A stretch of 62,789 bases of DNA, the filler included, from Candidatus Methanoxibalbensis ujae (lineage in GTDB: Archaea > Halobacteriota > Syntropharchaeia > Alkanophagales > Methanospirareceae), in assembly GCA_026134085.1 (NCBI GenBank). It is 5 parts of 5 records of this genome, joined end to end, with 100 filler letters (N's around TTAATTAATTAA, not from the genome) between each part and the next. Parts side by side here need not be neighbours in the genome. Positions count along the whole stretch, not along the records: positions 14,052 to 26,538 come from JAOQIN010000049.1; 4 more parts are not named here. One strand, given 5' to 3'. The translations under genes were made by a program, and so were the position numbers. Position 1 is the first letter of the stretch, and each line of letters starts with the position of its first letter. Under the pieces are notes generated by a model. That model did not search any database. It saw only the letters and a list, made by a program, of their open reading frames with translations, and was not told where the DNA came from. Positions 13,952 through 51,680 of the stretch are shown here, piece by piece.

Positions 13952-14051
13952 NNNNNNNNNNNNNNNNNNNNNNNNNNNNNNNNNNNNNNNNNNNNTTAAT
14001 TAATTAANNNNNNNNNNNNNNNNNNNNNNNNNNNNNNNNNNNNNNNNNNNN
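13952..14051. other. Artificial contig linker
   Basis: N44-TTAATTAATTAA-N44, stops in all six frames. Confidence 0.99.
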
Positions 14052-14305
14052 AGCGGATGAGCTTCATTTTGCCTTCAATCTGCACCCTGTAGCGATATAC
14101 TCCCATCGGCTTCCCGGGAGTGTGATGTCTGTGGGCATTTTCACATTCAACACCTCGCGCTCACTGACTGTCGCTTGCGTCTCTTCACTGAGCGGGTGAG
14201 CGTAAGGGTGAGCTGATACATAACAAAGACATCACAGATTCAAAATGAACGGAAATCTATTCAAGCTGGATGGCGGCTTCAAGCTGATGTTGCGGTGGCG
14301 GAGAT

Positions 14306-17300
14306 ATGAGTGACTATGAGACATCTCTGCGGATAGAGCTTGAGAGAGCACTGGAAACTGCGAGGGAGGCGAGGAGCACTGGATTTGATCCTGCGCCGCA
14401 CACTGAGATAAGCGTGACGAACGATATTGCGGAGCGTGTTGAGGCGATTGTGGGCATAGAGGGCATAGGCGATCGTATAAAGGAGTATGAGCGGGAGGGG
14501 CTGAGCAGGGAGGAAATAGCGATAAGGATTGCGGATGATTTTGTTGCAGGCGTGTTCTGCGGTCGTGATGAGGATGTGCGCATTGTGGAGAATTCCGTGA
14601 GAACTGCGGTCGCAATACTCACCGAAGGTGTTGTTGCCGCTCCGATAGAGGGGATTTCAAAGATATCATCAGCGAGAAACGACGATGGCAGCAGGTTCAT
14701 CAGGATATATTATGCAGGGCCAATAAGAAGTGCTGGAGGGACTGCACAGGCGCTTTCAGTTCTTATTGCGGATATGGTGAGGCGGAAGCTCGGGTTTGCG
14801 AGTTACAAGCCGCGTGATGAGGAGGTTGCGAGATATGTGCTTGAGATCGCCACTTACGACAGGATAAGAGGTCTGCAATACACGCCAAGCGATGAAGAAG
14901 TGCGGATGATTGTTCGCAACTGTCCAATATGCATAGACGGCGAACCATCTGAGGAAGAGGAGGTTGACGCTTACAGGGATCTGGAGAGAGTGAGCACAAA
15001 CAATGTGCGCGGGGGCATGGCGCTCGTGATATGTGAGGGGATTGCTCTGAAAGCTGCGAAGATACTGAAGTATGTTGAGAAGTTGAACATTGATGGATGG
15101 GAGTGGCTGCGTGAACTCATCGCTCTGAAAAAATCGGATAAAAAAGAGGGAGACAGCTACCTTGAGGACATCATAGCAGGCAGACCGATGATAGGTAAAC
15201 CGTCGTGCAAGGGCTCTTTCAGGCTGCGATACGGAAGAGCACGAAACACAGGTCTCGCAACTGTCGGCATACATCCGGCGACAATGGCACTCCTTGAGTT
15301 CCTCGCTGTCGGCACGCAGATAAAGCCCGAAATGCCGGGAAAGGGCGCATGCATAGCACCTGTTGACTCAATTGAAGGCCCAACAGTGAAGCTGAAAGAC
15401 AAATCGCTCGTCAGACTGACATCTGTTGATGATGTCCTCTCACTCAGAGATGAGATATCAGAGATTGTTGACCTCGGTGAGATTCTCGTCGACTTCGGTG
15501 ATTTCCTTGAAAACGGCAGGAGACTGGAACCCGCTGCATACTGCCACGAATGGTGGCTGCTTGAACTGAAAGAAAAACTGAATTCTGACTGCGCTCATTA
15601 TGATGCTCATCTCAATAAAGAGGATTCAACCGGTGTTGTCGCGGCGTTATTGCGCGAGAAGCGTGTTCCCGGGATGAAGGAAGCGATAGAGATATCGCGC
15701 AGGTATGATATGCATCTGCATCCAGCATACACCTATCTCTGGGAAGACATCTCAGCTGAAGACAGGAAATTCCTCGCATCGTATATTCGTGAGAGAGGCA
15801 TATTGGAGCAATGCAGAGAGTGCGGCGGAGTTCTCATGATTCCGAGCGATGAAAATGTGAAAGCGATTCTTGAGAACCTTCTTGTGCCTCACCGAATCAT
15901 AAAGAAAAAGCGTTTCAACACGCTTTTCAATGTTGAGGAGCGTGAGTTCATATGCATTGAGAATCCCGCTGCACTTCTGGAGTGCCTGGGCATCAGTCAC
16001 AGAAACCTGCGAGAATCTGTGACTCCGCTTAAAACAAGGCAGAAAGCGCCTACAAGAATAGGCGTGAGGATGGGAAGACCGGAGAAAGCAAAGGAGCGGA
16101 AGATGAAGCCAGCACCCCATCTGCTTTTTCCCCTCGGAAACTTCGGCGGGAGGAACAGGTCTCTGCGTGATGCTATGCGAAATCGTGTGATTGATGTTGA
16201 GATAGGCGTCTGGCGCTGTAAATGTGGAAGGGAGTCCCTGTTTCCGCGATGTTCGTGCGGATCTCACATAACCGCCGAGCCCGTTAAGATGCAGAAAAGC
16301 GTGAATATATACGAAATGTTCAAACAAGCAACAGAAAAATTGGGAATTCATGTTCCAGATGTGAAATGTGTTATTGGATTGATATCAAAGAAAAAGGTTG
16401 CTGAGCATATAGTGAAAGGTATTCTCAGGGCAAAACATAATGTTTTCGTGTTTAAAGATGGAACAATACGATATGACATGACAAACATGCCGCTTACACA
16501 TTTCAAAGTGGAGGAGGTTGAGGGGCTTGATGTTGAAAAGGCGAGGGAGCTCGGATACACGCGTGACATATTTGGCAATCCTCTTGTTTCGGACTCGCAG
16601 GTGGTTGAGCTCAAGCAGCAGGACATCATAATTCCGGTGGATGCTGCGTTTTATCTCATGCGTGTGGCTGAGTTTGTCGATGATGAGCTCACGCATTTAT
16701 ACGGGCTTTCTCCTTACTACAATGTCAATCGCAGGGAGGATCTCATAGGAAAGCTCGTGATAGCACTCGCGCCTCACACATCCGCGGGAATTCTGGGAAG
16801 GATAATAGGATTCACGAGGGCTTCAGCGTGCTTCGCACATCCATTCTTTCATGCCGCGAAGAGAAGAAACTGCGATGGAGACGAAGATTCAATTATGCTT
16901 CTTATGGATGCTCTCCTCAACTTCTCAGTTTCATTCCTTCCTGAGAAAATAGGAGGGAAAATGGATGCTCCCCTTCTTCTTATCCCTTATATAAACCCGA
17001 AGGAAATAGACAAGGAGGCGCATAATTTGTCAATTGCATATGAATATCCGCTGTCTTTTTATGAGGCGACGCTCTCACGGAAAAAGCCTGTGGATGTCAA
17101 TATACCCACAGCATCTGAGCGTGTTTACGAGAGAAAGGATGCATATGGCTTCGGATACACGCATGAAACATCTTCAATCACGGCAGGCTGCCTTAAATCC
17201 GCATACAAGCGGCTTGAAAAGATGAGTGAGAAGATGGACGCTCAACTCCGCCTTGCTGAGATGCTGCGCTCAGTTGATGAGCGTGAAGTTGCGGAGATAA

Positions 17301-17608
17301 TCATAAAAAACCATCTCATTCGCGATATAAAAGGAAATCTGCGCGCATTCGGCACACAAAAAGTGCGGTGCTCACAGTGCAATGCAAAATATCGCCGAGT
17401 CCCTCTGAGCGGGAAATGCAAGAAATGCGGCGGCAATCTGCTTCTCACAGTGCACGCATCAAACATATCAAAATATCTGCATATCTCAATCCAGATAGCT
17501 CACAGATATGAGATCTCCGATGCACTGCAGATGCTTGAGATGCTTTCTGAAGACATACAATCGCTGTTCCAGGAGGATAATCAGCGATCGCTGACTGATT
17601 TTCTGTAA
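14306..17608 (+). CDS. polC: DNA polymerase D large subunit (DP2), intein-free
   Basis: TEGVVAAPIEGI, YYAGPIRSAGGTAQALSV, GSFRLRYGR, FHAAKRRNCDGDED catalytic motif, C-terminal zinc finger and PIP-like QRSLTDFL. Confidence 0.98.
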   Translation: MSDYETSLRIELERALETAREARSTGFDPAPHTEISVTNDIAERVEAIVGIEGIGDRIKEYEREGLSREEIAIRIADDFVAGVFCGRDEDVRIVENSVRTAVAILTEGVVAAPIEGISKISSARNDDGSRFIRIYYAGPIRSAGGTAQALSVLIADMVRRKLGFASYKPRDEEVARYVLEIATYDRIRGLQYTPSDEEVRMIVRNCPICIDGEPSEEEEVDAYRDLERVSTNNVRGGMALVICEGIALKAAKILKYVEKLNIDGWEWLRELIALKKSDKKEGDSYLEDIIAGRPMIGKPSCKGSFRLRYGRARNTGLATVGIHPATMALLEFLAVGTQIKPEMPGKGACIAPVDSIEGPTVKLKDKSLVRLTSVDDVLSLRDEISEIVDLGEILVDFGDFLENGRRLEPAAYCHEWWLLELKEKLNSDCAHYDAHLNKEDSTGVVAALLREKRVPGMKEAIEISRRYDMHLHPAYTYLWEDISAEDRKFLASYIRERGILEQCRECGGVLMIPSDENVKAILENLLVPHRIIKKKRFNTLFNVEEREFICIENPAALLECLGISHRNLRESVTPLKTRQKAPTRIGVRMGRPEKAKERKMKPAPHLLFPLGNFGGRNRSLRDAMRNRVIDVEIGVWRCKCGRESLFPRCSCGSHITAEPVKMQKSVNIYEMFKQATEKLGIHVPDVKCVIGLISKKKVAEHIVKGILRAKHNVFVFKDGTIRYDMTNMPLTHFKVEEVEGLDVEKARELGYTRDIFGNPLVSDSQVVELKQQDIIIPVDAAFYLMRVAEFVDDELTHLYGLSPYYNVNRREDLIGKLVIALAPHTSAGILGRIIGFTRASACFAHPFFHAAKRRNCDGDEDSIMLLMDALLNFSVSFLPEKIGGKMDAPLLLIPYINPKEIDKEAHNLSIAYEYPLSFYEATLSRKKPVDVNIPTASERVYERKDAYGFGYTHETSSITAGCLKSAYKRLEKMSEKMDAQLRLAEMLRSVDEREVAEIIIKNHLIRDIKGNLRAFGTQKVRCSQCNAKYRRVPLSGKCKKCGGNLLLTVHASNISKYLHISIQIAHRYEISDALQMLEMLSEDIQSLFQEDNQRSLTDFL

Positions 17609-17656
17609 CTTTCTTTTTCTGTTATTGTGATGATGATGGTGAGGAGGGATTGAGAG

Positions 17657-18817
17657 ATGAGCGGTCTGACGAAGGATGATATAATGAGGGCGATATATCA
17701 CTGTGTGAAGTGCAAATTGTGCAGCATTGCATCATTTCATCCGAGAGAGGAATGGAGCCCTTTGTGTCCCAGCGGTGCATACTTTGGATTTCAGGCATTT
17801 TACGCGCCAGGGAAGATGGAGATATTCAGAGAACTGCTTGAAGGGCGTATGAATCGTTCTGAAGGTCTTATTGATGCTGTTTTCGCCTGCACGCTTTGCG
17901 GCGCATGCTATGAGAAGTGCCGTCGTGTGTCAAAGGTAGAGATTCCTCTCGTCGAGATATTTGAGGAGATGCGCAGTGAGCTCTCTGCTCTTGGATGGCA
18001 GTGCGATGTGCATCGTGAGATTGCTGATAAAGTGCGGAACACGAGGAACGCATATGGAGAGGAGCGAGCATCTTTTGATCTCAGGAATCTCAGGCCATCG
18101 GAAGGTGCGAATGTGCTCTATTTCATAGGATGCACCGCGAGATACAGGGTGCCTGAGATAGCAGATGCGATGCTGCGCATTCTAAACGAGAGTGTTGAAT
18201 ATCAGGTGCTTGAGGATGAGTGGTGCTGCTGCTCGGTTCTCATTCGGACTGGTCAGCGAAATACGGATATCGTGAGGGAGCATGTGCGTCACAATTATGA
18301 TGCGATAGTGAAAAGCGGCGCTGATACAGTGGTGTTCACATGTCCTGGCTGCTTGAAAACGCTGAAAATTGATTATCCGATGCAGGGCGCCGACTTAAGC
18401 GATGCTGGAATCGAGCTTATCCATGCTACAGAGTTCATCAGGCGTATATACGGCGAGAGTGCTCTTAAAAAATTGCCTCTAACTGTGACATATCATGACC
18501 CCTGCCATCTCGGTCGTGATCTCCGCATATATGATGCTCCTCGTGATGTGCTGCGCGGTGCTGTGCAGGAACTGCGAGAGATGCGCCGTGTGAGGGAGGA
18601 GGCCTGGTGCTGCGGTTCAGGTGGCGGCGTAAAATCCGCTTTCAACGATTTTGCAGTATGGTGCGCGTCCGAACGATTGAAGGAGGCGGCTGAGACAGGT
18701 GCTGATGCCATTGTGAGCGCATGCCCCTTCTGCAAGCGCAACCTGCGTGATGCTTCAACTGGCATGCGAGTGCTTGATGTTGTTGAGGTTATTGAGGAAG
18801 CGTTGCTGCGCCGCTAG
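17657..18817 (+). CDS. HdrD/GlpC-like Fe-S protein (4Fe-4S plus two CCG domains)
   Basis: CVKCKLC, CTLCGACYEKC, FIGC, WCCCS, CPGC, YHDPCHLGR, CCGSGGG, ACPFC. Confidence 0.9.
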   Translation: MSGLTKDDIMRAIYHCVKCKLCSIASFHPREEWSPLCPSGAYFGFQAFYAPGKMEIFRELLEGRMNRSEGLIDAVFACTLCGACYEKCRRVSKVEIPLVEIFEEMRSELSALGWQCDVHREIADKVRNTRNAYGEERASFDLRNLRPSEGANVLYFIGCTARYRVPEIADAMLRILNESVEYQVLEDEWCCCSVLIRTGQRNTDIVREHVRHNYDAIVKSGADTVVFTCPGCLKTLKIDYPMQGADLSDAGIELIHATEFIRRIYGESALKKLPLTVTYHDPCHLGRDLRIYDAPRDVLRGAVQELREMRRVREEAWCCGSGGGVKSAFNDFAVWCASERLKEAAETGADAIVSACPFCKRNLRDASTGMRVLDVVEVIEEALLRR

Positions 18818-18826
18818 CGGCTTAAG

Positions 18827-18901
18827 TGCTCCGCCGGGGATTTGAACCCCGGTCGTGGGCTCGAGAGGCCCACATGATTGGCCGAGCTACACCAGCGGAG
18901 C
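18827..18901 (-). tRNA. tRNA-Glu (CTC)
   Basis: Reverse complement GCTCCGCTGGTGTAG...GTGGGC-CTCTCGA-GCCCAC...GGTTCAAATCC...GCGGAGCA folds as a cloverleaf. Confidence 0.95.
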
Positions 18902-18910
18902 ATTTTTCTT

Positions 18911-18986
18911 CCCTCCCGACCGCCAGACAGGTTCCTGCTTCGGAAAATTACTTCCGCATGGCGGAGTTGACCATCTCAACCCCCCC
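18911..18986 (-). ncRNA. Candidate structured RNA / long 5' leader of tRNA-Glu
   Basis: Four nested inverted repeats with G-U pairs favouring the minus strand; TTTATAT box at 19012-19006. Confidence 0.45.
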
Positions 18987-19070
18987 ATTATAATATGAGC
19001 GGCCCATATAAATAATAACACTCCTTCTCCGCTCCAGAAATCAGCGGCAGCTTTCATTTGGTGGTGTGCC

Positions 19071-19125
19071 GCTGTTGCTCCGTGGGAGGTGCTGTTGCTC
19101 TGTGGGAGGTGCTGTTGCGGGAGGT
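19071..19125. repeat. 20-bp tandem repeat GCTGTTGCTCYGTGGGAGGT (about 2.5 copies)
   Basis: Read directly; lies just past the stop of the phoU-like gene. Confidence 0.85.
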
Positions 19126-19127
19126 CA

Positions 19128-20201
19128 TCAGAATTCCTCCTCTTCTGCCGACTTAATGCACATGTTTATGGTGACTTCAGCTATATCAGCGCAGTATTTA
19201 GATATTCTTGCGAGGCTTTCAAGTATGGAGAGGACATGAATTTTCACTGTCATATCTCCTTTATCTGTCAAAACACTCTCATAAGCTTCTTCAACATGTT
19301 TAACAATTTCATCTGTTTCTTTAATCACGGAATTTGAGCGCTTCATATCCATTTCAGAAAGTGATTCCATCACATCAGCAAACACTTTTTTCACATGATC
19401 TCCTATATCTCTTATCATGGATATCCGCTCTTCGGGTATAATTTCGTTTATTATGCTTTGAAACGCGATGTTTTCGATGTGGTCGCCTATGCGTTCTATG
19501 CTTTTAACGATTATACGATATCCGAGGCTGTTTCTGGGCGAGCCTATGCCTATTTTCTGAGAGAGTTCGTAATCACTCATAATAGCTTTAAGCTGTCTCA
19601 CGATGAGAAGATAGAATCTGTCTATTTCATTATCACGCTCCATCACATCTTTTGCGAGGTTTATATCGTGATTTTCAATTGCGCTCAGCGCGTCTTCAAG
19701 CATTGCGAGCACTATATCCCTCATCCTTTTTATCGCATCGCATAGCGTGAAGTCCTCATATTTGAGGAAGCTCTGCAGTTGTATTTCAGTTGATGATTCT
19801 CCGACCACCTCCATGCCTATCAGCCTTTTTCTCACCTCCTCCTTTATTCTTTTTCGCTCCTCGGCGTTGAATCCGTGCTCGGCGAGCAGTTTTATTTCGT
19901 CATATCCCACGAGATACAATGCGATGAGGTATCTCAGGTTTTCCTCAAACCCCTCTCTGTCAGATAGTTTGAACTCAACTCTCCGCATTATGCGCTCATC
20001 TCCGCCTTCAACTCCTCCGCGCTCTGGCATCAGAAGCAATGTGTTTCTGCCATATCTGAGAAGGAGCATCTCATCTCCCTTTTTGATGCCGAGCTCCTTC
20101 ACCCACTTTATCGGCAGCGATATTATGTATGTTGAGCCGCCTGTGAGCTGTATTCTCCTTTTCTCTCTCCTCATCTTCACGCGCCCCCCTTCCTCTGTCA
20201 T
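19128..20201 (-). CDS. phoU: Phosphate uptake regulator (AbrB-like N-domain plus PhoU domains)
   Basis: RRIQLTGGSTYIISLPIKWV AbrB motif; DNEIDRFY and ERIGDHIENIA PhoU motifs. Confidence 0.9.
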   Translation of the reverse strand: MTEEGGRVKMRREKRRIQLTGGSTYIISLPIKWVKELGIKKGDEMLLLRYGRNTLLLMPERGGVEGGDERIMRRVEFKLSDREGFEENLRYLIALYLVGYDEIKLLAEHGFNAEERKRIKEEVRKRLIGMEVVGESSTEIQLQSFLKYEDFTLCDAIKRMRDIVLAMLEDALSAIENHDINLAKDVMERDNEIDRFYLLIVRQLKAIMSDYELSQKIGIGSPRNSLGYRIIVKSIERIGDHIENIAFQSIINEIIPEERISMIRDIGDHVKKVFADVMESLSEMDMKRSNSVIKETDEIVKHVEEAYESVLTDKGDMTVKIHVLSILESLARISKYCADIAEVTINMCIKSAEEEEF

Positions 20202-20251
20202 GAATATACGCAGACACAGCTATCAATACCTTTATATTACCTATATGTAAC

Positions 20252-20284
20252 ATCTCTCCGGTATAGAAATCTCTCCGGTATAGA
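20252..20284. repeat. Direct repeat ATCTCTCCGGTATAGA x2 in the divergent promoter region
   Basis: Exact 16-bp copies with 17-bp period between phoU and the ATPase gene. Confidence 0.85.
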
Positions 20285-20373
20285 GAGTGGAAATACAGGA
20301 AAAGAGAGAGGGAGGTGCGATAAAGCGAGCATTTTTATAGGAGCATGCAGCATATAAAATAGGAGAAGGGGAG

Positions 20374-22002
20374 ATGGATATGGACGATTATGTGCCAAGG
20401 CATGAGTACGAGCGATTGGAAAGTGAATATCGCAGACTGAAGCGCAAGTATGAGGAAGTTGAAGCATACAAGGAGGACCTTGAGAAGCTCATATTCAGGG
20501 CAAGGTCTCCGCCTCTTGATTGTGGGTTCGTTGTTGAGAAGAGGGATGACGGTGCTGTCGTGAATCTGAACGGCGCGCTCAAGGTTCTTCCATATGGTCC
20601 GCTCAGTGATGAGGAGCTTGCGAAGATAGAGGAGGGCAAGTATGTCTTCATAGGCAGGATACCTGACAAGAACAGCCCCAACGGATTCACCATAGGAATC
20701 ACGAAGGTCTATGACCGCGCAGTCAATCTTGAGGTCGGCGAGGTAGAGGCTGTGTGGGAGGAGAACGGTGAGTGGATAAGTGTCATCGCAACCGGCAGAG
20801 GGCACACGAAGATATACAAGAAGCTCAATGAGAAAGAGCGCGAAATGGTCAGGGAAGGGCAGAAAGTGGGCATGCTGCCTGGCACTGGAGATGTGAAAAA
20901 GAGCTACAAAACCAAGGAGTTCGTGAGATATGAGGTCACGAAATCCCCTGGTGTGAGCTTCAACGATATAGGAGGACTTGAGGAGGTGAAAAAGGAGCTT
21001 ATAAGAAGCATAATATTGCCCATGCTGAATCCTGATGATTATTCTGTTTTCGGCGAGGCATCAAGAAGAATATTGCTTTACGGACCGCCTGGATGTGGAA
21101 AGACGATGTGTGCGAAGGCTCTCGCATCAGCACTTCCAAACTGTGAGTTTGTGAAGGTTGGTGCTGGAGAGCTTTTCAGCATGTGGCTCGGAGAATCCGA
21201 GAGGAATGTGCGTGAGATATTTAATATGGCGAATCGCAAGCTTGAGGAGGGTGAAAACGACTATGGCATCATATTTTTTGATGAGATAGATGCACTCGCT
21301 CAGGAGCGTGGGATGTATGCAGGCTCATCAGGAGCGCCTGAGAGGGTTACGGGTCAGCTGCTTGACATACTTGACGGTTTTTACTCACTCCACCCCCATC
21401 TCACTGTCATAGGCGCGACAAACAGGTTGCATCTCATAGATTCCGCATTCAGGGCGAGATTTGATAAGATCATAGAGGTTCCCAAGCCGGATAAGAAGGC
21501 TGCTCTCGCCATATGCGAGATATACGCGATGAAAGTGCCTCTTGACAAATATCTTGTTGAGGAGAAAGGCTCTGAGGATGACGCTCGCAGATATGTTGTG
21601 AATGAGCTCGTTGAATACATGTTCAGGGACGAGGTCATTGAGACTGAAATAGGCAGGATAAAGCGCGGAGAGACAATAACAGGAAGGTTCATCGCTCAGA
21701 TATTTAACTATGCAAAGGACAGGGCGCTTGAGGAGAGGACGCTTCTGAAAGTGCATGAGGGCATGGTTAGGGACAGGAAGCTGTTGAACATGTGGAGTGG
21801 GGAGGGCATCGCATCGCTGCTCAATGCAGATGAGCGTGTGAAGGAGCTCAAAAGGAAATACAAGAGCGCTGAGGAGATAGGTGTCACATTTGAACTTCTG
21901 AAAGAGGGCTTTGAGAAGTATGTCCAGCGGAGAGCTGAGGAAATACTCGCATCGGGATTTGACACGGAGAGCTTTGAGGTTGAAACAGGAATGCACTACT
22001 GA
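20374..22002 (+). CDS. ARC/Mpa-type proteasome-associated AAA+ ATPase
   Basis: N-terminal coiled coil ending in SPP, two OB-like segments, PGVSFNDIGGL, Walker A GPPGCGKT, pore loop MWLGESE, Walker B IIFFDEID, SRH GATNR...RFD; adjacent to PafA/Dop homologues. Confidence 0.85.
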   Translation: MDMDDYVPRHEYERLESEYRRLKRKYEEVEAYKEDLEKLIFRARSPPLDCGFVVEKRDDGAVVNLNGALKVLPYGPLSDEELAKIEEGKYVFIGRIPDKNSPNGFTIGITKVYDRAVNLEVGEVEAVWEENGEWISVIATGRGHTKIYKKLNEKEREMVREGQKVGMLPGTGDVKKSYKTKEFVRYEVTKSPGVSFNDIGGLEEVKKELIRSIILPMLNPDDYSVFGEASRRILLYGPPGCGKTMCAKALASALPNCEFVKVGAGELFSMWLGESERNVREIFNMANRKLEEGENDYGIIFFDEIDALAQERGMYAGSSGAPERVTGQLLDILDGFYSLHPHLTVIGATNRLHLIDSAFRARFDKIIEVPKPDKKAALAICEIYAMKVPLDKYLVEEKGSEDDARRYVVNELVEYMFRDEVIETEIGRIKRGETITGRFIAQIFNYAKDRALEERTLLKVHEGMVRDRKLLNMWSGEGIASLLNADERVKELKRKYKSAEEIGVTFELLKEGFEKYVQRRAEEILASGFDTESFEVETGMHY

Positions 22003-22054
22003 TGAGTGATGGTGTATCAACAGCAGCGCTGATGAGTGATGGTGTATCAACAGC
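21999..22054. repeat. 26-bp direct repeat spanning the ATPase stop codon
   Basis: CTGATGAGTGATGGTGTATCAACAGC at 21999-22024 and 22029-22054. Confidence 0.9.
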
Positions 22055-22152
22055 GGGAGGAGTATGACGGGTGATGAGTTACAAGAGATGAGTTACGAGT
22101 GACGAGTGACAGGAGATAAGTGACGGGAGACAGGAGGAGGAGAAAAAAAAGG

Positions 22153-23919
22153 ATGGAGAAGGAAGATCTCAACAGATGGCAGGGTATTGAGCACGAGTTC
22201 AGGGTGGGCATATCATCTGAATCCCCCGAGTTATACAGGTATGCGCGGTTTTATCATGTTGATGAGGTCATACATGCGCTTGAGAACTACGAATTCTTTG
22301 ACGGCGAGCGTGCGGTGTGCACGAGGATCTGCCGAAGGAACGATGGATTTCTGCGCAACGGATCTCGCATTTACATATGCACGGGAGGTCATCTTGAGAT
22401 CGCAACGCCTGAATGCAGAAACGCATTTGAAGTGCTGAAATACGACAAAGCATCAGAAATATACATGCAGATAGGCGTTGAGGAAGCGAACAAGAAGTAT
22501 AGGATAGGTGAGCGAAAGATAAAGAACGCACACATACAGTGTTGGAAGGCGAATGTTGAGCTTGACAAGCGATACAGCAGGGGCACTCACGAATCCTATA
22601 TCATAGAAAGGAAGAGGTTTGTCGGGAAAGAGCACCTTTTCATTCCTTTCCTCGTGCTTCGCAAGATTTTCTTCGGAGCGGGCGGCTTCATAGCTGAAAG
22701 AGAGGGCATAATATATGTGATATCGCCAAAAGCTATGGTCGCACGCCGTGTGTTCACAGAATCTCCATCTCAATGGCCTATACTGTCGTCAAGAGACGAG
22801 CCACTCACCACGAAGGACAAATACAGAGTTCATGTGACATCGGGGGAGGGACTGCGCTGTGAAGTCACGAGACTGCTCAACAACGCAATCACCTCATATG
22901 TGCTTGATGCGATCGAATCAGGAAAAATAAGGCATGTGGATGACATATGGAATCCCCTGCAGACATTCAAGGAGATATCATCAAATATCTCAGGAGAATG
23001 GCGGATAAAACTGAGGAACGGGAGGAAAGTGAGCGCACTTGATTACATTGAATCGCATTATCTTGAGCCAATAGAGTCTCTTTTTGAGGAGAGAGAGGTG
23101 TCATATTGGGATAAATATGCGCTTGATACATTTAAGAGACTGTGTGAAAAATTCCGTCAGGGATTGATAGAGGATAAATATGTGATTCGCAGAGTTGAAT
23201 GGGTGCTTAAGTGGTATGTTGTCATGCATGAGATAGAGGAGTTTGAATACAAATGCAGTCCTCGCAGCAAGTTTGACTATCGCAACATGTACATCATGAG
23301 CGAGCGCCTTGAGAAACAGATAGCAGCATCCTTTGATTTCACGAACCTCTGTGATTATGATCTGTATGAGCGTGTCGCAGATCGCATAGGCGTTGAGCGC
23401 ATACTGACAGACGAGGATATAGGGGAGGCGCTTCTGTTCCCGCCCAAGGACTCGAGAGCTGAGTTGAGGATGAGGCTCGCGAAGGAGTTCAAGGGCGCCG
23501 CTGTGAACTGGAACAAGATAACGATGAAAAGAGAGCCGAAGGTGCAGATAGAGCTCACGCGTCCCGGCACGGAGGAGTATGCAATGCTTTTTGAGAGGTA
23601 TCCCGAGCTGGCGAGAATGCCCAACGCGATGGTTGTTTTCCTCAGAGAGGAGCACGGCGGAAGAGAGCCATCAAGACAGGTGCTCGTCAGACTGCTCACA
23701 AATGAGGAGGACATAACGGGATGGGAGGAGGAGATAATACGGGAGATCAGAAGCAGAATATCCCGTAATCCCTATCTGGATTACCTGCTGTATGCGAACA
23801 ACCGCACATATCGGTTTGATGAGCTTGACGGATGGAACGAGGAGACGATACGCAGAAAGGTGGAGGAGATAAAAGAGAGCGAGCAGAATGATGAAGCCCT
23901 AATGCGCTCAGATGAATGA
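22153..23919 (+). CDS. PafA-like (Pup/UBact ligase family, GS/GCS fold) protein
   Basis: GIEHEF, FLRNGSRIYICTGGHLEIATPEC, YDKASE, GTHESY, IPFLVLRKIFFGAG, RDEP, RVHVTSGE and VEWVLK align with PafA motifs GIExEY, [51 protein letters not shown]. Confidence 0.85.
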   Translation: MEKEDLNRWQGIEHEFRVGISSESPELYRYARFYHVDEVIHALENYEFFDGERAVCTRICRRNDGFLRNGSRIYICTGGHLEIATPECRNAFEVLKYDKASEIYMQIGVEEANKKYRIGERKIKNAHIQCWKANVELDKRYSRGTHESYIIERKRFVGKEHLFIPFLVLRKIFFGAGGFIAEREGIIYVISPKAMVARRVFTESPSQWPILSSRDEPLTTKDKYRVHVTSGEGLRCEVTRLLNNAITSYVLDAIESGKIRHVDDIWNPLQTFKEISSNISGEWRIKLRNGRKVSALDYIESHYLEPIESLFEEREVSYWDKYALDTFKRLCEKFRQGLIEDKYVIRRVEWVLKWYVVMHEIEEFEYKCSPRSKFDYRNMYIMSERLEKQIAASFDFTNLCDYDLYERVADRIGVERILTDEDIGEALLFPPKDSRAELRMRLAKEFKGAAVNWNKITMKREPKVQIELTRPGTEEYAMLFERYPELARMPNAMVVFLREEHGGREPSRQVLVRLLTNEEDITGWEEEIIREIRSRISRNPYLDYLLYANNRTYRFDELDGWNEETIRRKVEEIKESEQNDEALMRSDE

Positions 23920-23944
23920 TCAATAACGAGATGACGGGCGGAGG

Positions 23945-25588
23945 GTGTGGGTGGTGTCAGCGATATCATCGTGTGGAACACTTCGCAAGATAAGGGGTGT
24001 TGAGCAGGAATATCCTGTGAGTGCGACAGCTTCATTCAATCCCAACATCCTTGTGAATGCAGCAATTCAGGGGCTCCGCCGCAGGAATTATTCGAGGATA
24101 GTGTTCTGGGACATTTCAACCGAGATATCGCAGGAGCAGCATGAGCACAGGATAACAAACTCATACGGTGAGAACGGCTGCCGCATATACAATGACATGG
24201 GGCATCTTGAGATCTCCACACCTTCTTACAACGATCCTTTTGATGCAATAGCATACGATAAGGCATCTGAGATATATGCGTTCATCGCATCAAAAAGCGC
24301 TGGTCTCGCGCTTAAGAACCGTGTTTTTATACATAAAAACAATGTTGCAAACTTCTTCGTAAGCATCGCAGGAGGAGTGACAGGACTGAGCGGTATAGGA
24401 GGAGCTGCTGTCAAAGAGGAGAGGCGCGTGCGAACAAACACATACGCAACACATGGAAACCTCCTCACCGAGCGAAGGGCATGCAAGGACTGGAGAAGGG
24501 TTGAGCGCGCACTTATACCGTGGGTTATCTCAAGGATAATATTCACAGGTGCCGGTGATGTGATATCGGGAGATGTCATGGGAAAAACAGGCATAAAATT
24601 CGTGATATCTCCGAGAGCAATGTTCGTCATGCGAAAATCCTCTCTCTCAACAACATCTGCAAGAGGAATTCTCAACACGAGAGATCAGCCACATGCCTCA
24701 TTCAAATACTGGCGCCTTCACGACATCCACTTTGAGGCTCTCCGCTCTGAATATGCTATTTTCATGCGGGATATAACCAACGCTCTTGTGATCCGTGCGT
24801 TTGAGCTCGGATATCTTGATGATGCTCCTGAAATAGAAGATCCTGTGGGCACATTCAAACGTATTTCAGCAGATACGCAGGATTGTGACTGGCGCATAAA
24901 CCTCAAAAACGGCGAAAAGACAGATGCAGTGGGCATACTCTGGTTCTATCTCTCCAAGATTGAGGAAATGCTCACAAGCTCCGAAACGGCTGGAGCGGAG
25001 ATGAATGAGGATGAGGACAGGGAGGAGCAGAAGTGGGAGAGCATTGGATTAAAAGCGTTTGAGGAGATGCTTGATCTGTTTTCGGAGAGAAGGGTGGAGG
25101 AGTTCGTAGATGGCATTGACTGGGTGACGAAGCTCGCGCTCCTCGTCAACTATAAGCCACGAAAAATATCCGAGGGCATACACATATGCAACCAGTTCGC
25201 ATTGCTTGATGAAAGTGTCCTCTTCTATGTGAACGACGGAAAGGAGAGGATGGAGAGCAAGTGCCTTTTCTCGCCGAAGGAATCACTCAGCTTCGCACGA
25301 AAGAAGCTGCATGAGGTGGCGTGGCATCGCCTGTTCGATCGTGTGAGATATGCGCTCAGGAACGCGCCTGAAGACACGAGAGACTTCTTCAGGGCGGAGA
25401 TGTTGAAGCACTTCAGCGCACATGTGAGGGGAGTCAGCTGGTCAACGCTGATCCTTGAGAACGCAAAAATAATACTGGATGAGCCTTTCATGCTGAACAG
25501 GCGTGAGATAGGAGATATATCTGAATATGAGCTCAGTGAAATCCTTTCAGAAGCGAAAAGGTTATATCCAGATAAACTCATTCTATAA
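23945..25588 (+). CDS. Dop-like (Pup/UBact deamidase/depupylase family) protein
   Basis: GVEQEY, Dop-loop-like insert with FWD, NGCRIYNDMGHLEISTP, YDKASE, HKNNV, SRIIFTGAG, RGILNTRDQPHA, RLHDI, IDWVTK. Confidence 0.85.
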   Translation: MWVVSAISSCGTLRKIRGVEQEYPVSATASFNPNILVNAAIQGLRRRNYSRIVFWDISTEISQEQHEHRITNSYGENGCRIYNDMGHLEISTPSYNDPFDAIAYDKASEIYAFIASKSAGLALKNRVFIHKNNVANFFVSIAGGVTGLSGIGGAAVKEERRVRTNTYATHGNLLTERRACKDWRRVERALIPWVISRIIFTGAGDVISGDVMGKTGIKFVISPRAMFVMRKSSLSTTSARGILNTRDQPHASFKYWRLHDIHFEALRSEYAIFMRDITNALVIRAFELGYLDDAPEIEDPVGTFKRISADTQDCDWRINLKNGEKTDAVGILWFYLSKIEEMLTSSETAGAEMNEDEDREEQKWESIGLKAFEEMLDLFSERRVEEFVDGIDWVTKLALLVNYKPRKISEGIHICNQFALLDESVLFYVNDGKERMESKCLFSPKESLSFARKKLHEVAWHRLFDRVRYALRNAPEDTRDFFRAEMLKHFSAHVRGVSWSTLILENAKIILDEPFMLNRREIGDISEYELSEILSEAKRLYPDKLIL

Positions 25589-25610
25589 TATGATGAGGGA
25601 GGAAGAAATA

Positions 25611-25898
25611 ATGAGTTATTCAGCAGCGGAGGATGCAATGATCGTGACACGGCCTTCGTGGCTCCTGCGAGCAGATGCGGAGGAGGAAGTGGAAGAGGAA
25701 ATTGAGGTGGAAGAGTCAAAACCTGAGGAGACAGTTGAGGTGAAGGATGAGGATAAAGGACTATCATCAATAATGGAGCGATTAAAAGAATATGAGAAAA
25801 AGAAAAAAGCCGCTGATCTCGTGAGCAAATTGCGAGGAAAAAAAAGAGTGAACAAGAAAATCATGCCTTATGAAATATACGCAACCGCCGGTGAATGA
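25611..25898 (+). CDS. Candidate Pup/UBact-like modifier protein (C-terminus YATAGE)
   Basis: Small Glu-rich, low-complexity ORF directly after the dop-like gene, ending G-E-stop; GGAGG-type SD before ATG 25611 (alternative start 25638). Confidence 0.75.
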   Translation: MSYSAAEDAMIVTRPSWLLRADAEEEVEEEIEVEESKPEETVEVKDEDKGLSSIMERLKEYEKKKKAADLVSKLRGKKRVNKKIMPYEIYATAGE

Positions 25899-25934
25899 TT
25901 TCTCCATCCCTTTTCGGCGGCTTGTTGCTCTCTG

Positions 25935-26015
25935 CTTTGTTTTTCTCTGTTTTAACTCCTGTTTTTTATTTTTTTTATCTTTTTTTCCTTTTTCTTTTAT
26001 CTCTTCATCTCTTTT
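25935..26015 (+). terminator. Oligo-T-rich archaeal terminator after the tagging operon
   Basis: Multiple T-tracts immediately downstream of the modifier gene. Confidence 0.55.
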
Positions 26016-26494
26016 GAGAGGCAAAGAGTTGGAAGAAGGAATCTGCTCAATCATCATTATCTGCTCAATCATCATTAAGTCACGCTTGCCACCACGGCGC
26101 CTCCACCTCAAATCGGGGCTGGACTTTCATCCCGGCTTTATTTTTTACCGATGGTCATTCAGGAGACAGGAGCATTTGCAGAAGTGGATAAATCGTAAGA
26201 GTGCGGAAATTGCAGTTTTGATAATATTAATATCTTTTACAGCATCCGGAAGCAATATCACATAGCAGTTAACGGTCACAAATTGTCAACTGTTGAGAAT
26301 ATCACTGTGATGTTAACAGAATGTGCAGTTCATGTGTGGTGAACAACTCTTTCAGGCGGAGTAACTTGGGCATCCTTCGTTCAATGTAGTGGTCTGGGTG
26401 CTTTCGCATCTTTACCCATAGCTCCTATATAAATATAGGTAAGTGATAGGTGAGAGAGGGCGTGAAAAGCGGAAGGGAGGTGATGAGAGAAGAA

Positions 26495-26538
26495 ATGGAA
26501 GGGAAGAGTAAGATTGCAGGGGCGTTGATTGCAGCAGT
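26495..26538 (+). CDS. 5' fragment of a signal-peptide-bearing protein, cut by contig end
   Basis: GGAGGTGA SD then MEGKSKIAGALIAA. Confidence 0.5.
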
Positions 26539-26638
26539 NNNNNNNNNNNNNNNNNNNNNNNNNNNNNNNNNNNNNNNNNNNNTTAATTAATTAANNNNNN
26601 NNNNNNNNNNNNNNNNNNNNNNNNNNNNNNNNNNNNNN
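26539..26638. other. Artificial contig linker
   Basis: N44-TTAATTAATTAA-N44. Confidence 0.99.
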
Positions 26639-39118: not shown

Positions 39119-39218
39119 NNNNNNNNNNNNNNNNNNNNNNNNNNNNNNNNNNNNNNNNNNNNTTAATTAATTAANNNNNNNNNNNNNNNNNNNNNNNNNN
39201 NNNNNNNNNNNNNNNNNN
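39119..39218. other. Artificial contig linker
   Basis: N44-TTAATTAATTAA-N44. Confidence 0.99.
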
Positions 39219-51580: not shown

Positions 51581-51680
51581 NNNNNNNNNNNNNNNNNNNN
51601 NNNNNNNNNNNNNNNNNNNNNNNNTTAATTAATTAANNNNNNNNNNNNNNNNNNNNNNNNNNNNNNNNNNNNNNNNNNNN
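51581..51680. other. Artificial contig linker
   Basis: N44-TTAATTAATTAA-N44. Confidence 0.99.

Follow-up and report, generated by a model that had tools for sequence, protein, structure and literature searches.

A small Gly-Glu-ended protein encoded behind a Dop-like gene in Candidatus Methanoxibalbensis ujae: a probable tag of an archaeal pupylation-like system

In this study, we analysed a 62,789-nucleotide stretch of DNA from Candidatus Methanoxibalbensis ujae (hereafter, the window), and the small ORF at positions 25611..25898 (+ strand) is most probably the cognate covalent tag of an archaeal pupylation-like system; by analogy with the known systems, we give this reading a probability of roughly 0.85. 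The anatomy of the gene, the conservation of its Gly-Glu/Gln end, its operon context, its co-distribution with two PF03136 enzymes, and the family and fold of these enzymes are established here. The whole tagging scheme, in which a PafA-like enzyme (LigA) would serve as the ligase, a Dop-like enzyme (LigB) as the recycler and an ARC-like ATPase as the unfoldase, is likewise argued by analogy, and we hold it to be slightly better than an even bet. The window consists of five contigs with N spacers between them (13952-14051, 26539-26638, 39119-39218 and 51581-51680), and gene order across the spacers is artificial because separate contigs are joined there; the tag locus lies in window 14052-26538, which comes from JAOQIN010000049.1.

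The tag gene encodes 95 aa without an internal stop and ends in YATAGE, and an alternative start (ATG 25638) would give 86 aa. Each start is preceded by a GGAGG on the + strand that may act as a ribosome-binding site, one at 25598..25602 (8 nt 5' of ATG 25611) and the other at 25628-25632 (5 nt 5' of ATG 25638), and the gene begins 22 nt downstream of the LigB stop. A first-pass annotation of this DNA had described a protein of 86-95 aa ending in Gly-Glu after a dop-like gene, and the translation, the two ATGs and the 22-nt gap agree with it. From the N-terminus, the protein is laid out as an acidic disordered half, a long basic helix, a short helix and the terminal Gly-Glu. Its net charge is -14 over residues 1-48 and +8 over residues 49-95, and an AlphaFold2 model built from a 51-row alignment predicts helices at residues 47-80 and 86-93, with pLDDT below 50 at residues 1-15 and 18-44, that is, over most of residues 1-44; the annotated picture of a Glu-rich, low-complexity N-half followed by a Lys-rich half predicted to be helical agrees with this. 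Behind the gene, a T-rich tract (25899..26018, + strand, 61% T, runs of up to 8) may be an archaeal terminator. As a conserved terminator it was rejected, because a run of five or more T within 80 nt is found in just 13 of 49 orthologous loci, and a scan for bacterial promoters and terminators gave signals no better than the shuffle level.

The evidence that this ending matters comes from two sources. First, the terminal G[E/Q], which the first-pass annotation had put forward for comparison among orthologues, is conserved. A protein search gave 146 candidates and 64 matches, and with the query a set of 65 proteins (74-124 aa as called) was obtained, two of which share 99% identity with the query. 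GE ends 64 of the 65 and GQ ends one, as against a G[EQ] end in 8 of 1276 ORFs of at least 200 aa in the source genome, a comparison in which the homologues are kin, not independent, and were found through the same C-terminal stretch. The YATAGE ending named in the annotation is present in the window tag but belongs to a minority of the family (9 of 65); the consensus is YATSGE (55 of 65), with YATSGQ in the remaining protein. A genome scan gave 51 tag loci, of which two form an inverted duplicate within a single contig; their ends are SGE (49), AGE (1) and SGQ (1), so that all 51 carry G[EQ]; Thr occupies position -4 in 51 of 51, and position -3 is Ala or Ser. Two partial tag matches, P0066 and the second match in one genome (G118:C24), are without the terminal motif and may be fragments or remnants. 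Second, selection can be read at the codon level. In the window copy and 50 loci (51 copies, the duplicate dropped), the last 33 codons of the tag, which with the stop occupy 25797..25898 (+ strand), are near-invariant, with 17 of 33 positions invariant, and pairwise differences amount to 15,913 synonymous versus 3,774 non-synonymous, indicating purifying selection. The stop codon varies among these copies (TGA 36, TAA 11, TAG 4) and G[EQ] precedes every one, with all four Gly codons and both Glu codons in use. The tag gene is a genuine coding sequence with a selected end, and a chance ORF or shadow frame is rejected.

The sole Gln-ended tag (locus L024:7111-7368, CAG codon) is identical to P0010 and sits in an intact operon, and it offers a natural test case for deamidase activity of LigB. 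The first-pass annotation had taken the Glu end as the mark of a distinctive, ligation-ready subtype. This claim found no support: the actinobacterial Pup of Nonomuraea itself ends in GGE, and the one orthologue ends in Gln. The alternation of Glu and Gln at the tag end is the same as in the Pup signature G[EQ], and it counts in favour of the tagging scheme.

The tag resembles Pup and UBact by every indirect test and falls outside both in tests of sequence membership, in line with the annotated view that it is distinct from either by sequence. The Pup family PF05639 was absent, for all 51 tag members, from the 25 families shown at E <= 10, and its genome-wide search gave no match at the tag gene while a Corynebacterium control passed; hhalign of the tag against Nonomuraea Pup returned a probability of 0.07. 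The UBact model NF033388 matched none of the 51 members at E <= 10 and had no genome match at the tag gene, in a search where no control genome reached the cut-off. When a profile of the tag alignment was run against 1.84 billion representatives, four matches were obtained, all of the tag's own family type, with no bridge to Pup or UBact. A PDB sequence search and a Foldseek search with the tag model gave nothing at E <= 0.001, and the ESM Atlas gave no usable match for the tag.

The likenesses are those of build and setting. The signature of Pup given by Iyer et al. 2008 (PMC2588565), namely proteins of 50-90 residues ending in G[EQ] beside a PafA gene, is fitted by the end, the size and the ligase-adjoining position of the tag. 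Bound to its enzymes, Pup is described with C-terminal helices and a disordered N-part (PMC8599861), and a threading model is described for Mpa (PMC8755798); the predicted disordered N-half and two C-terminal helices of the tag resemble both descriptions. As in the Pup-proteasome system, a small, largely disordered, G[EQ]-ended protein is encoded immediately after a Dop-like gene, in the company of two PF03136 paralogues and an ARC-like ATPase, and its C-terminal part is predicted to form two helices. In contrast to Pup, the tag has no detectable sequence homology, ends in T[SA]G[EQ] rather than the di-glycine GG[EQ], and has a basic C-half where that of Pup is acidic (the last 30 residues average +5.1 in the 65 homologues and reach -9 in Nonomuraea Pup), the last point having been noted already in the first-pass annotation; the system also differs from the actinobacterial one in its archaeal host and in the absence of prcBA from the operon. 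UBact has a basic C-terminal stretch and ends in R[ST]G[EQ]. The present tag is like it in being a small G[EQ]-ended protein from a PafA/Dop/ATPase locus outside Actinobacteria, but it has no Arg before [ST]G[EQ] and is, at 74-124 aa as called, longer than the 54-position NF033388 model. Like the SAMPs of the SAMP/UbaA system, the tag would be a small covalent protein modifier in archaea, its covalency being presumed; SAMPs, however, have a beta-grasp fold, a Gly-Gly terminus and E1-type adenylation (PMC2948915), whereas the tag is predicted to be helical, ends in Glu and is accompanied by enzymes of the glutamine-synthetase fold, and the two are unrelated.

The operon reads, on the + strand, ARC/Mpa-like ATPase, LigA, LigB and tag. 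LigB is directly upstream of the tag in 38 of 50 loci, and the full set of three partner genes can be seen at 33 loci. In the 12 loci where LigB is not directly upstream, fewer than 300 bases lie upstream (three) or other genes do (nine), and in two genomes (G237 and G222) the tag is detached, with the ligases on another contig. In most full loci, the upstream neighbour is a divergently oriented gene (19128..20201, - strand, in the window) for a PhoU-family regulator whose N-terminus carries a MazE/AbrB-type domain. In five loci (L002, L003, L023, L026 and L028), a gene resembling ribose-phosphate pyrophosphokinase, judged by eye from its N-terminal sequence, directly follows the tag, and in four of these the tag is detached from the operon. 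Two loci are irregular: in the closest named relative (L001:6886-8828), LigB appears as two overlapping ORFs of 436 and 211 aa, through a frameshift or an assembly error, and at L029:1839-4781 the ATPase is cut to 323 aa and is followed by LigB and the tag, LigA being absent from the locus, through a deletion or a misassembly.

Tag and ligases also travel together across genomes. Within the family, 53 of 54 genomes carry PF03136; so do both genomes of the sister family, and the 344 other genomes sampled from the phylum gave no match. The tag was found, mostly in single copy, in 58 of 65 family genomes, in both of the sister family and in none of 11 other class members; since the genomes are incomplete, blanks in this distribution mean 'not found'. 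Among the genomes searched, tag and enzymes are confined to the ANME-1/Alkanophaga order, and the named tag homologues carry the labels Methanophagales/ANME-1 and Ca. Alkanophaga. The same operon occurs in two records titled Desulfobacteria and Nitrosotalea (L030 and L046), which we take to be mislabelled or misbinned because of about 70% identity to ANME genes. In viral contigs, 88 matches to the tag pattern were obtained and none was confirmed. In NCBI records the enzymes go by 'Pup--protein ligase' or 'PafA2 family', and the tag by 'hypothetical protein', apart from one evident mislabel.

This distribution and the fixed end bear on the weakest of the alternatives: that the tag is no covalent modifier but a small acidic/basic protein binding an operon protein or nucleic acid through a plain Gly-Glu motif is very unlikely, since the last residue is only Glu or Gln, the two that this enzyme family handles, the stop never moves and the tag tracks the ligases, even though the Lys-rich helix is unlike Pup, nine of the 50 copies are found outside the operon and LigA has no catalytic Asp. 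That nine tags are detached from the operon and preceded by other genes also counts against the tagging scheme as a whole.

LigA (PF03136; 22120..23919, + strand, likely start ATG 22153) resembles PafA by several measures. It scores 159 bits with the PafA profile versus 114 with that of Dop, and it carries PafA-type marks (a one-residue insertion, Phe, Gly and Ala) at positions given as diagnostic in Hecht et al. 2020 (PMC7947786), most of which fit the profile scores of the two enzymes. Its structural model has a pTM of 0.81, the top 10 Foldseek matches are Dop and PafA structures, and its ESM Atlas matches are Pup_ligase clusters only. The ATP/Mg residues, including the GhExE motif, are invariant in 34 of 34 sequences (E24, E26, R83, H91, E93, H157, R225, R236 and H238). 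An insert of about 85 aa near the C-terminus (window 23540-23800, residues ~475-560) is conserved, has low model confidence and lacks a counterpart in PafA, in Dop or in the short paralogues; it is a candidate substrate- or partner-binding module.

The most distinctive feature of LigA is the TGC codon at 22378..22380 (+ strand), which encodes Cys87 (with GTG 22120 as codon 1) in place of the Asp that serves PafA and Dop in catalysis; this change had been missed in the first-pass annotation. Cys is found there in 34 of 34 LigA proteins from the loci, and in all 115 site-spanning homologues among the 120 listed of 160 found (113 by pattern and two by alignment), the other five of the 120 being fragments without the catalytic site. 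As given in the supplement of Hecht et al. 2020 (PMC7947786), this column is 100% Asp in PafA, and three Nitrospirae PafA there keep the Asp; LigA shares with Nitrospirae PafA the motif around this site, a Thr-Gly after the catalytic position and then Thr-Pro-Glu-Cys, but differs from actinobacterial PafA in the Cys and in the insert. In PafA, the Asp (Asp57/Asp64) is described as required for pupylation, which is abolished by Asp-to-Asn (PMC5358908), and the D64N enzyme is reported as catalytically inactive (bioRxiv 10.64898/2026.04.10.717840); its suggested role is that of a base or of a nucleophile (PMC5358908; bioRxiv 10.64898/2026.04.10.717840; for Dop, PMC8599861). The alpha-loop Thr-Thr, one Arg and one His are likewise swapped in LigA for other invariant residues. 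The lack of the Asp needed for pupylation and of the alpha-loop Thr-Thr counts against the tagging scheme. Because the lost residues are replaced by other invariant ones and the ATP/Mg residues are kept, the acceptor side of LigA reads as a rewired rather than a decayed site, as far as residues can tell. A third PF03136 gene of the source genome (G000:C56:4095-5672; L085:1095-2672), 40% identical to LigA, also has Cys at this position; it has neither the RDEP motif nor the insert seen in LigA, has no adjoining tag and is convergent with a Cas4-like nuclease gene.

At the same diagnostic positions (PMC7947786), LigB (PF03136; 23945..25588, + strand, start codon uncertain) has the marks of the Dop type: the insertion that follows the Asp in PafA is missing, a Ser-Thr-Pro is present, and the Dop-loop position opens with Trp-Asp in 37 of 37 sequences, the loop being shorter than that of Dop. 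The catalytic Asp (codon 24194-24196, + strand) is kept in 37 of 37. The Dop profile gives 150 bits versus 109 for PafA, and the score of 182 lies below the TIGR03688 cut-off of 492. The first-pass annotation had cast this Dop-like enzyme as the de-conjugase, a role that is favoured by these motifs and by the reciprocal profile scores of the two enzymes, but is weakened by a partner without the catalytic Asp and by an AU test that rejects a clade of LigA and actinobacterial PafA (p = 0.0017; a quick tree of 10 rows, two of them bacterial, with long branches).

The alternative that survives best keeps the tag and exchanges the roles: LigB would ligate, or do both, and LigA would be a thioester de-conjugase, transferase or activator, or else a non-catalytic adaptor. 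LigB retains 16 of the 19 first PafA/Dop anchor residues compared (with one further Asp-to-Glu) and LigA 11 of 19, the same small tree lends no support to a simple LigA-PafA orthology, and few changes are described as turning Dop into a ligase (PMC7947786). For a de-conjugating LigA, the Asp at the position of Cys87 has been proposed as the nucleophile of depupylation (PMC5358908), a role open to Cys. The Dop-type marks of LigB and the PafA-type marks of LigA point the other way, and the invariant ATP/Mg residues argue against LigA as a dead adaptor. We regard this exchange of roles as doubtful, though the likeliest of the alternatives.

The ARC/Mpa-like AAA+ ATPase (20374..22002, + strand) was recognised by its similarity to an actinobacterial ARC (28%, E 2e-34), in an alignment that takes in residues 22-420 and spans both the coiled coil and the AAA domain; its score of 160 is below the TIGR03689 cut-off of 505. 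Its C-terminus is [ED]TGMH[FYL] in 31 of 31 sequences, thus ending in H-[FYL] without a penultimate Tyr, and the C-terminal motif of Mpa is given as GQYL, with that Tyr (PMC8755798). The source genome carries two proteasome-family subunit genes unlinked to the operon, a PAN scoring over the TIGR01242 cut-off, and genes for a ThiF-family enzyme and for ThiS/SAMP-like proteins, and the tag system is therefore additional to the usual archaeal machinery. In corynebacteria, ARC acts without a proteasome. It is conceivable, although unlikely in our estimation, that the tag is conjugated for non-proteasomal ends, with the ARC-like ATPase remodelling or disassembling tagged complexes and PAN serving the 20S. 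The absence of proteasome genes from the operon and of the penultimate Tyr from the ATPase tail counts against a proteasome link, and the presence of PAN and of the ThiF and ThiS/SAMP-like proteins fits the non-proteasomal use; however, the tail is as strict as a docking motif would be, and proteasome subunit genes are present in the genome.

In the preferred scheme, with LigA as the ligase, the near-invariant C-terminal ~33 residues of the tag would fold as two helices on the Pup-ligase-family enzyme, and the side chain of the terminal Glu would be set into its active site. LigA would phosphorylate the terminal Glu carboxylate with ATP and then pass the tag on to an acceptor; its route would dispense with the usual Asp base and either use or tolerate Cys87. 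LigB would remove and recycle the tag and deamidate the rare Gln form. The ARC-like ATPase would bind the long helix of the tag via its N-terminal coiled coil, thread the disordered acidic N-half and unfold the target, which would probably be handed to the archaeal 20S proteasome of the host, whose genes lie outside the operon. A more specific form, a separately evolved ANME-1 pupylation-type system in which a tag-phosphate gives a tag~Cys87 thioester and then the acceptor conjugate, possibly with non-lysine acceptors or tag chains, is tentative and we would not favour it; it would amount to thioester chemistry of the ubiquitin-like kind carried out by a Pup ligase of the glutamine-synthetase fold; such a thioester relay is allowed because the Cys is invariant, the ATP site is intact and the acceptor-side changes are coordinated and fully conserved.

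A literature search, with most subscription journals outside its reach, found no paper on an ANME-1 Pup-like tag. Under the terms searched, the 2025 review PMC12288473 has no passage on such an archaeal tag; the text of PMC11354881 and PMC5751360 that concerns UBact mentions it in passing only; the survey of Hecht et al. 2020 covers bacterial phyla only, with archaea unmentioned in its main text (PMC7947786); and the Pup-like candidates that Makarova and Koonin 2010 put forward in archaea are CC-ended proteins of halobacterial origin (PMC2948915). The tag may nevertheless already figure in the UBact paper of 2017. Two ANME-1 loci were reportedly named UBact in connection with that work by Lehmann et al., and these we presume, on balance, to belong to the present tag family.

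In conclusion, the interest of this locus rests mainly on its archaeal setting and on the Asp-to-Cys ligase. A ligase that naturally does without the 'essential' Asp would make the question of base versus nucleophile testable, and with four genes that are short and soluble-looking, in vitro reconstitution is feasible; a pair of tag and ligase with no relation to Pup might also find use in orthogonal proximity labelling. If the reading is true, the tag would be a third kind of tag sequence besides Pup and UBact, and methane- and alkane-oxidising archaea would possess an order-wide tagging system as a second route beside sampylation.
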